Of a stretch of DNA of 64,000 bases, positions 34,873-35,312 are shown piece by piece. The stretch is from the sequence record PV646497.1. One strand, 5' to 3'. The notes beneath the pieces were generated by a model. That model ran no database searches. It saw nothing but the letters and a program-made list of their open reading frames with translations, and was not told the origin of the DNA. Numbering within the stretch: position 1 is the first letter of the stretch; each line of letters starts with the position of its first letter. The position numbers and the translations under genes are program-made. The stretch is from Enterococcus phage CUB-FS.

Positions 34873-35312
34873 AAACACAATTGCCGTCTTGTAGCGTAAG
34901 CTACTCGATTAAACTTACCTAAACGGGCATAGCTGAATAACCAATAAGCTGATAAGAGAACCTAAGTCCTGAAAAGGATAGAGGCAATCCCGTGCTAAGT
35001 TGCTATAGTAAAAAAAAGAGTGTAGGTAGCTAGAATATCTACTAGGTAATGATGTATGTGGTGTACTGGTAAGCACTACATATCTGAACCTTTATAGGGT
35101 TATGTGTGAACACCTCAAACCAGTAAAGAAAACACACTATAGCATAAATGCCGAACGACTATCGAAAAGTGAGTACCTGTCGAGAGGACACCTACAATAT
35201 AACTGAGTAGAGTACACCAACAGGTGGAAATGGTAAGGCTCCTAGAGTAACGACTAGGAGCGTGATATAGTCTAAGCCCCTAATAAATATCGGGAAACCG
35301 AGGGTATAACTG
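34873..35312 (+). ncRNA. Group I self-splicing intron (440 nt, no ORF) in the DNA polymerase gene
   Basis: The exon ends ...ACGGU, which can pair with intron GCCGU at +11 (P1, U.G at the splice site). The intron ends in G (35312). Joining gives FGIAYG|ESPFSIAPKLGVTVEEAERIFEEYF, colinear with PolA motif B downstream sequence. It shares a ~120-nt core with the recA-like intron. Confidence 0.7.

Follow-up and report, generated by a model that had tools for sequence, protein, structure and literature searches.

A predicted group I intron of the Enterococcus phage CUB-FS DNA polymerase gene appears to carry a drum RNA, possibly directed against host PBECR4 modules

The DNA polymerase gene of Enterococcus phage CUB-FS (sequence record PV646497.1) raises the question of how a core replication enzyme can be encoded by a gene that is visibly broken. 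In the 64,000-nt stretch analysed here (the window, whose positions are used throughout), the reading frame of a family-A polymerase stops shortly after motif B and resumes 440 nt later in a different frame. What is the element at 34873–35312, and why does it carry approximately 140 nt that a related intron in the nearby recA gene lacks? On balance, we favour the explanation that it is a group I intron with a drum RNA as its cargo, the drum perhaps serving to neutralise or titrate PBECR4 modules of the host. The phage is a Kochikohdavirus (Herelleviridae) of Enterococcus, with 98.9 % identity to phage ECP3 across 34400–35800, and the genes of the region, all on the plus strand, encode the family-A polymerase, a probable single-stranded-DNA-binding protein and a RecA/UvsX-like recombinase.

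The interrupted gene is made up of the following parts, in which ORF stands for open reading frame:

32497–34872, plus strand: polymerase exon 1, encoding the 3′-5′ exonuclease and polymerase domains through motif B (...NFGIAYG), with Pfam domains DNA_pol_A and DNA_pol_A_exo1, colinear with uninterrupted homologues.
34873–35312, plus strand: predicted group I intron of 440 nt without a homing-endonuclease ORF, missing in phage phiEF24C, with covariation in P1–P9 and a 3′ half approximately 90 % identical to the recA intron.
35313–36008, plus strand: polymerase exon 2, reading ESPFSIAPKLGV... to its stop codon at 36006–36008, assigned by translation and by colinearity with uninterrupted homologues.

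The polymerase ORF 32497..34899 ends in ...NFGIAYGKHNCRLVA and a stop, that is, NFGIAYG, then KHNCRLVA, then the stop as ninth codon. Since 440 cannot be divided evenly by 3, exon 2 is read in another frame than exon 1. Joining 34872 to 35313 yields a protein of 1023 aa, the length also of the uninterrupted phiEF24C product (ORF061, 61475..64546), and the spliced polymerase aligns with no gap across the junction to the uninterrupted enzymes of Listeria phage LP-039 (NFGIAYGETPFS), Staphylococcus phage Maine and Bacillus phage Kamfam. At the DNA level, phages phiEF24C, Ef2.3, A155 and 53 are 96–98 % identical through the junction, with zero nt between ...GGT and GAAAGT; the phiEF24C flanks are 98 % identical and precisely the 440 nt are missing. 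Because phiEF24C DNA runs ...TATGGT/GAAAGT... without the insert, the 440-nt insertion is a real presence/absence polymorphism and not a sequencing frameshift, the alternative that the initial annotation of this locus had set as its refutation. What that annotation had described, a frame stopping 9 codons after motif B, its resumption 440 nt later in another frame and splice sites after U34872 and G35312, therefore stands. Judged from the reading frames, removal of the predicted intron from the polymerase pre-mRNA is required for full-length enzyme.

The helices expected of a group I intron can be assigned as follows (comparisons for P2, P3 and P8 are with the second polymerase intron of Bacillus phage KKP_4048):

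34868–34887, plus strand: P1, exon ACGGU (34868–34872) paired with guide GCCGU (34883–34887, intron +11 to +15), with U34872·G34883 at the 5′ splice site; read from the sequence.
34891–34904, plus strand: P2, hairpin GUAGC-GUAA-GCUAC with a GNRA loop; GUAUU-GUGA-AAUAC in KKP_4048, two pairs altered on both sides.
34914–34919, plus strand: P3 5′ strand CUUACC, with its partner GGUAAG at 35232–35237; three pairs altered on both sides and one on one side.
34923–34993, plus strand: P4 enclosing the P5 hairpins, ACGGG (34923–34927) with CCCGU (34989–34993); both-side changes in one pair of P4 and two of P5a.
35002–35143, plus strand: P6 stem enclosing the drum cassette, GCUAUAGU (35002–35009) with ACUAUAGC (35136–35143), 8 bp, from the minimum-energy fold.
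35157–35162, plus strand: P7 5′ strand GACUAU, with its partner AUAGUC at 35267–35272; the guanosine-binding helix, invariant in all relatives.
35163–35231, plus strand: P7.1/P7.2 insertion between P7 and P3′, UGUC-GAGAG-GACA and CACC-AACA-GGUG; the recA intron has the same, shown by Rfam as an insert.
35239–35260, plus strand: P8, hairpin CUCCUAG-AGUAACGA-CUAGGAG; three pairs altered on both sides.
35277–35312, plus strand: P9 region, with hairpin UCGG-GAAA-CCGA and the terminal guanosine G35312; read from the sequence.

This structure, P1–P9 with the P3/P7 pseudoknot, was drawn by hand and its pairs were counted on an alignment of three sequences: the window intron, the KKP_4048 intron and that of Listeria phage LMTA-148, the last with its endonuclease ORF trimmed. 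Across 70 pairs in 14 helices, 96.2 % were paired and 17/70 had changed on both sides (in P1, P2, P3, P4, P5a, P6 and P8); shuffled alignments gave 5.5 ± 1.9 such changes, none of 500 reaching 17, and slid partners gave 0–1. The change in P1 comes from LMTA-148, whose guide reads GCCGA where exon position −5 is U, not A. The P4/P5 helices recur in the minimum-energy fold of the trimmed intron, and the P7 strands align with the conserved GACUA and UAGUC of the Rfam group I model (RF00028) in the recA intron and KKP_4048. Elsewhere the relatives diverge in sequence: the KKP_4048 P7.2 hairpin is different (CCUAC/GUAGG), and in Staphylococcus phage KSAP11 the entire P8 stem differs, with pairing still possible by inspection. 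The P7.1/P7.2 insertion is one that we take to be typical of group I subgroup IA2.

Homology points the same way. The 3′ half of the polymerase intron is approximately 90 % identical to the window's recA intron, itself scored by RF00028 at 72.8 bits, and more than 350 phage records match the intron, among them that of Twort nrdE (81 % over 72 nt) and one from Staphylococcus with the annotation Intron_gpI; it is a member of a family common in phages of Firmicutes. No homing-endonuclease ORF is present in the intron, where the longest ORF, on the minus strand, encodes 53 aa and gives no match in Pfam. We are thus in very little doubt, from sequence comparison, that 34873–35312 is a group I intron, and the P1 pairing with its U·G wobble at the cleavage site, the group I assignment and the lack of an endonuclease gene were all described correctly at the outset. 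Splicing would begin with exon ACGGU and guide GCCGU forming P1, after which an external guanosine would attack after U34872 and the terminal G35312 would dock, the exons being joined as GGU/GAA.

The P9 block of this intron (CCCCUAAUAAAUAUCGGGAAACCGAGGGUAUAA, 35277–35312) is 90–97 % identical in introns of many otherwise unrelated Firmicute phages, even where the remaining intron is unmatched; Listeria phage A511, Brochothrix phage A9, Staphylococcus phages and SPbeta-like Bacillus phages share it. Against Rfam RAGATH-9 it returned a weak 14–17 bits (gathering score 75).

None of the GenBank records examined annotates an intron, and the polymerase halves are given as separate ‘DNA polymerase’ coding sequences (CDSs). 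In the ECP3 record (KJ801817.2), exon 1 is itself cut into CDSs 598–2592 and 2610–2999 where the window has a single 800-aa ORF; the split (locus 2592–2610) is probably a frameshift error in that record. By itself, then, the intron is an annotation gain only, for genomes of the ECP3 type that show the polymerase as two or three separate genes.

What sets this intron apart is the content of P6, since introns of this sort normally bear a homing-endonuclease gene. The initial annotation had noted an extra peripheral segment of approximately 140 nt, missing in the recA intron; the segment is real (approximately 35010–35135, within P6), though rather than a merely unexplained extension it appears to be a drum RNA, with two parts:

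35022–35042, plus strand: P0 hairpin before the drum core, GUAGGUA-GCUAGAA-UAUCUAC.
35044–35140, plus strand: drum RNA core (Rfam RF02958), with P1 (AGGU/ACCU), a putative kink-turn (AAU-GA / GA), the P2 hairpin loop ACUGGUAA and a 3′ domain GGGUU..ACCUCAAACC..GAAAAC.

The cmscan match to RF02958 scored 52.8 bits (gathering score 43), with an E value of 5e-7 for the whole window and 4.8e-9 locally; the copy of ECP3 likewise returned 52.8 bits and that of phage PBEF129 47.5 bits. As in the drum motif described earlier (RF02958, PMC5737381), the window copy has a P2 with a CUGGUAAGC-type loop and the GGGUU, ACCNCAAACC and GAAAAC blocks; a 3-nt bulge and tandem G·A/A·G pairs (AAU-GA ... GA) mark a putative kink-turn. 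It differs in that, like other Lactobacillales copies, it has no counterpart to an internal hairpin of roughly 15 nt in the clostridial type. Alignments of all drum types with MAFFT put P0 and P1 out of register; hence, sequences were folded one by one and no pairs were counted. The P2 hairpin recurs with differing sequences in 8/8 short drums folded, and P0 (7–8 bp with a 7-nt loop), with other stem sequences, in 7/8, the Bombilactobacillus copy folding differently there. Between the ECP3-type and PBEF129-type cassettes there are four helix substitutions, all of which preserve pairing. Taken together, these features make it highly probable that the extra 140 nt or so are a complete drum unit, P0 plus the RF02958 core, related by descent to other drums.

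In nearly all drums examined, P0 lies 5′ of the region that the Rfam model covers, as 6–8 bp with a 7–11-nt loop whose stems diverge by lineage with pairing kept; it was placed at 35022–35042 in the window, 1311–1331 in locus L314, approximately 2955–2976 in L003 and approximately 13814–13836 in L167. Loops of the short-drum P0 resemble ACUUGAG, GCUAGAA or ACCAGAG. The RF02958 model could be extended by this helix.

Unlike the published drums, the window copy has no promoter, no terminator and no neighbouring PBECR4 gene, and is embedded in a ribozyme helix. No terminator-like site was found in 34700–35500, the P6 3′ strand directly following the drum, and no plus-strand promoter for the drum was found inside the intron. 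Since the cassette has neither a promoter nor a terminator of its own, the drum would be made only as part of the polymerase transcript. A second herellevirus lineage, the Listeria LMSP-25-like phages, has an orphan drum in a tRNA array (50.2 bits, 83 % core identity with the window). Drums were also sought in IMG/VR by pattern scans; among the matches listed for a 14-base pattern almost all were due to chance, and an 18-base pattern yielded 6 true drums among 60 loci. One candidate from a short-drum-specific pattern proved to be a false positive inside a large ORF.

Comparison of close relatives shows three states of this site: no intron, an intron with an endonuclease (approximately 20 records) and an intron with the drum (9 records, 8 phages). 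Phages of the Sw5 and EF1TV types share this intron, identical in its flanks, with a 663-bp ORF that has an I-HmuI NUMOD-like domain replacing approximately 34994–35150. In KKP_4048 (approximately 646–975 of the locus), P6 is a plain 7-bp hairpin. Both this intron and that of LMTA-148 (approximately 690–1715 of its locus) lie 12 nt upstream of the window's site (FG/IAYGE); the LMTA-148 core is 97 % identical to that of the window, its guide altered to match the differing exon base, a clear case of an intron site shift between neighbouring CGGU sites. At exactly the window's site there is a polymerase intron in KSAP11 (approximately 445–1005 of the locus). Its P6 holds an AT-rich insert of approximately 230 nt that contains no ORF, gives no match in Rfam and may be a decayed endonuclease gene. 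The intron of SPO1 gene 31 differs in position, lying approximately 100 codons upstream in ...SSNEP/..QQFPRK; homology to that site was therefore rejected, and the initial expectation of SPO1-type introns ‘at this position’ fails.

The flanking exon DNA carries a further trace. Within 300 nt around the site, the window differs from the intron-less phiEF24C at five positions (34854–34872 and 35333), all of them synonymous and all no more than 36 nt from the insertion site, four falling within 15 nt upstream and one 21 nt downstream. One of the differences, TAT to TAC, strengthens P1 by turning a U·G into a C-G pair. This cluster looks like co-conversion during homing, or like a target site made resistant to the endonuclease.

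Why an intron should carry a drum is best approached through the drums of bacteria. The motif was singled out in 2017 as an RNA whose function, though unknown, is likely to be sophisticated; in most cases a terminator follows it, and it is linked to a nearby protein gene (Weinberg et al. 2017, PMC5737381). The kink-turn of drum folds in vitro (PMC8191799), and no functional study of it was found in the literature searched. On prophage-like IMG/VR contigs, drums of approximately 102 bits lie beside the terminase, with a PBECR4 gene (PF18813, E value 1e-40) immediately after. A genome scan with one genome per species returned at least 120 loci, approximately 100 of them true drums and mostly from Lachnospiraceae; among the listed drum loci with at least 900 nt downstream, 47/76 are followed on the same strand by a PBECR4-like ORF, at a distance that rarely exceeds approximately 150 nt.

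The same pairing is found on plasmids of the host genus. A tblastn search with the Bombilactobacillus PBECR4 hit 16 Enterococcus plasmids and one Streptococcus suis plasmid, and in the four PBECR4 plasmids checked by Rfam a drum (46–52 bits) lies approximately 40–55 nt upstream of the gene. From the other side, BLAST with the phage cassette (35015–35145) returned 30 Enterococcus plasmids at 74–77 % identity over 85–92 % of its length (Rfam scores 50–52 bits), a match that covers P0, outside the Rfam model (plasmid P0: GUAGAUA-ACUUGAG-UAUCUAC). In plasmid pAJ10XM1A the order is TTGACA-N-TATAAT (1275–1304), P0, drum (1332–1429), terminator with a T run (1441–1462) and PBECR4 (1483–2079); these −35/−10 hexamers were read by eye and not listed by the promoter scan. 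In pKUB3006-2 it is drum, PBECR4, AbiH. An orphan drum with P0 is present in Enterococcus faecalis pT90-1 (351–1953), after which come approximately 470 nt of non-coding, AT-rich sequence and a gene for an ‘Abi family protein’, and tblastn found no PBECR4 remnant in this plasmid. All of the PBECR4-positive plasmids (17/17) have a drum, and some 10 drum plasmids, a group judged from pT90-1 alone, have no PBECR4. Such an asymmetry, PBECR4 never without a drum and the drum sometimes alone, is what one would expect if the two were toxin and antitoxin.

PBECR4 is predicted to be a BECR-fold RNase. The drum–PBECR4 pair appears to behave like a type III toxin–antitoxin (TA) or abortive-infection module. 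We infer this from how the genes are ordered, from the RNase fold of the protein, from the Abi genes nearby and from the asymmetric loss, as well as from the precedent of abiF, an RNA motif upstream of Abi_2/AbiF that has been shown to act as a negative regulator in a type III-like system (PMC12373285). The host loci share with the type III systems ToxIN, CptIN and TenpIN the order promoter, RNA, terminator and predicted RNase gene, and with type III TA and AbiF/RCd22 (PMC12373285) a location among Abi genes on plasmids; they differ in that PBECR4 has the BECR fold, is not ToxN/AbiQ-like and is missing from the defence databases queried. As the plasmid order promoter–RNA–terminator–nuclease gene is that of type III TA, a role as decoy or neutraliser appears the most likely one for the phage copy. 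PBECR4 itself was found neither in the window nor in any phage record with clostridial and enterococcal queries.

In mechanistic terms, the drum would leave the transcript as part of the excised intron, each splicing event yielding one copy; the intron would be the expression vehicle and the drum an antitoxin mimic or decoy disarming the host module. The P6 cassette is interchangeable with the I-HmuI-like endonuclease ORF between identical intron flanks. We propose tentatively, from the plasmid and prophage analogy, that the orphan drum of the phage may bind and neutralise, or titrate, a PBECR4-type nuclease or another drum binder of host plasmids or prophages. More speculative still, the drum might be an RNA antitoxin or inhibitor of PBECR4 that founds a new, non-repeat, type III-like class of TA or abortive-infection systems in enterococcal plasmids and clostridial prophages, with the ECP3-type phage intron as a vehicle for an antitoxin mimic and the Listeria phages doing likewise from a tRNA operon. 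A phage that carries only the RNA, as the window does, presumably parallels phage-encoded antitoxin mimics (pseudo-ToxI) such as that of phage phiTE.

A number of observations weigh against this explanation, beginning with the intron itself. Only three sequences, of which two are close to each other, underlie the covariation, so that its support is real but shallow, and P10 is weak (approximately 2 pairs by inspection). The check by Infernal with the Rfam group I model, proposed in the initial annotation, failed: RF00028 gives no match at E≤10 for 34780–35400 or for the intron 3′ half alone. In KKP_4048 the minimal homologue scores 19.9 bits (E value 0.006), under the gathering score, and the model is a poor fit to this subfamily of polymerase introns. 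As RF00028 does not score the polymerase intron, its group I membership rests on hallmarks, homology and covariation; the missing match was not accepted as evidence against it, given that the minimal homologue also falls below the gathering score and that the hand-built structure covaries. Within the drum, the 3b·3n pair of the kink-turn is U·U (C·U in PBEF129) where the consensus is A·G, and the PBEF129-type drum is also changed at a conserved A, its score falling to 47.5 bits. As to function, drum was judged unlikely to be an element of 5′ untranslated regions when it was described (Weinberg et al. 2017, PMC5737381); 29/76 listed drum loci have no detectable PBECR4; PADLOC has no model that matches PBECR4; and the drum is a single structured unit in which no repeats were seen, whereas known type III antitoxins are tandem repeats. 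The close relatives phiEF24C and Sw5 have no drum, so that it must be dispensable. Finally, with only about 75 % identity between the phage copies and those of plasmids, the phage drum is not a recent capture from the sampled plasmids.

The strongest competitor makes the drum cassette a neutral or selfish passenger, plasmid or prophage DNA recombined into P6, perhaps in place of a decayed endonuclease gene. In this family the content of P6 ranges from a 7-bp hairpin up to a 690-bp ORF, KSAP11 has its approximately 230-nt ORF-less insert in the same place, and sister phages without a drum are viable; the cassette is moreover confined to 9 records from 8 phages, and orphan drums persist on pT90-1-like plasmids too. 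A passenger would, however, hardly be expected to be kept as a whole unit, P0 to 3′ domain, together with the nucleotides that hardly vary across the family, when the parts that are missing, promoter and terminator, are those that would harm polymerase expression. The substitutions between the two phage variants keep helix pairing, and the independent orphan drum of the Listeria phages sits in another genomic setting. We regard mere carriage as rather unlikely.

Less likely again, and improbable in our judgement, is that the drum acts in cis on the ribozyme, its kink-turn aiding the folding of P4–P6 or a sensor tying polymerase splicing to a bound factor. A riboswitch-controlled group I ribozyme exists in Clostridioides difficile, and the drum motif has a kink-turn that folds well (PMC8191799), the window's copy being placed at the tip of P6. 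On the other hand, this intron core also works where P6 holds a simple hairpin or an ORF, so that a special element is not needed there; an 8-bp P6 stem closes off the cassette, with no interleaving with core helices; and drums occur mostly outside introns, beside PBECR4 or in a tRNA array. That there is no functional intron at all, the element being a sequencing or assembly artefact or a dead insertion with the polymerase made as two polypeptides, draws on the separate ‘DNA polymerase’ CDSs in GenBank, on the speculation for a related Aerococcus phage that split halves could function (PMC6409932) and on the missing Rfam score, and is extremely improbable given an identical 440-nt element in nine independently sequenced records (8 phages), a first exon 2-frame start codon at 35484 that would cost 57 conserved residues, compensatory changes in core helices and clustered synonymous exon changes typical of intron homing.

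Of the reading we favour, a group I intron with drum cargo directed at host PBECR4 modules, what is new lies in the drum cargo and in its connection with nuclease modules of the host; the group I intron itself is ordinary. To our knowledge, this would be the first case of a group I intron with, as optional cargo, a small RNA from the conflict between host and mobile elements and not a mobility gene. Group I introns are known to riddle the core genes of herelleviruses (PMC7409376), and because of this a polymerase intron is, on its own, unremarkable. It agrees with those in SPO1 gene 31 (with I-HmuI), Twort nrdE and orf142 and the polymerases of Staphylococcus K/Silviavirus phages both in the type of element and in the type of gene interrupted; its core sequence recurs in the Twort nrdE record, in the polymerase intron of KSAP11 and in the recA intron of the window, its sister allele has an I-HmuI-like endonuclease domain and it is inserted in a highly conserved polymerase motif. 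It departs from them in lying off the SPO1 site, in having no endonuclease gene, in not being scored by RF00028 and in a P6 loop that is a structured non-coding RNA of another family. With IStrons (PMC4227781) and GIR1 twin-ribozyme introns it has in common a second functional genetic element in a peripheral group I loop; here, however, the cargo is neither a transposase nor a second ribozyme but a small RNA with nuclease-linked relatives. No IS200/IS605 ends or genes were found in the window's intron.

Should the drum prove to act in this way, the range of possible intron ‘passengers’ would be widened. The window and the plasmid loci together make the function of drum concretely and cheaply testable. 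Kochikohdaviruses are therapeutic phages against E. faecalis and Enterococcus faecium; if drum–PBECR4 plasmids restrict them and the drum intron defeats this, host-range prediction and phage choice would be affected.

One IMG/VR contig (L078) departs from the usual arrangement: at 3368–5624 on the minus strand, a drum is followed by an IS200-type tnpA (Y1_Tnp, E value 6e-42), an AIPR abortive-infection gene and a helix-turn-helix gene, with a PBECR4 fragment approximately 5 kb off, which suggests that an insertion disrupted a drum–PBECR4 module. The IStron idea raised by this tnpA was rejected; it is a one-off insertion, the window contains nothing like it and what generally lies next to drum is PBECR4.

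Three further features of the window concern its replication genes. The recA intron (38607–38863, plus strand) lies between ORFs 38082..38621 and 38930..39628 and is a second group I intron, splitting the RecA/UvsX-like recombinase gene; it has a short P6 and an RF00028 E value of 1.4e-16 at the score given above, and Enterococcus phage Revolver has the same recA intron (74.9 bits). At 19648–22179 (plus strand), an ORF for an 844-aa DnaB-like helicase contains a LAGLIDADG / Hom_end domain (aa 416–483, motif LAGLIDTDG), most likely an intein. Lastly, a 429-aa ORF at 36708–37997 (plus strand), between polymerase and recA, has a Q/P-rich tail with three copies of QFNQQPVQP and no Pfam match; the gene before UvsX in phage Revolver and that after the polymerase region in LMTA-148 are annotated as single-stranded-DNA-binding protein.

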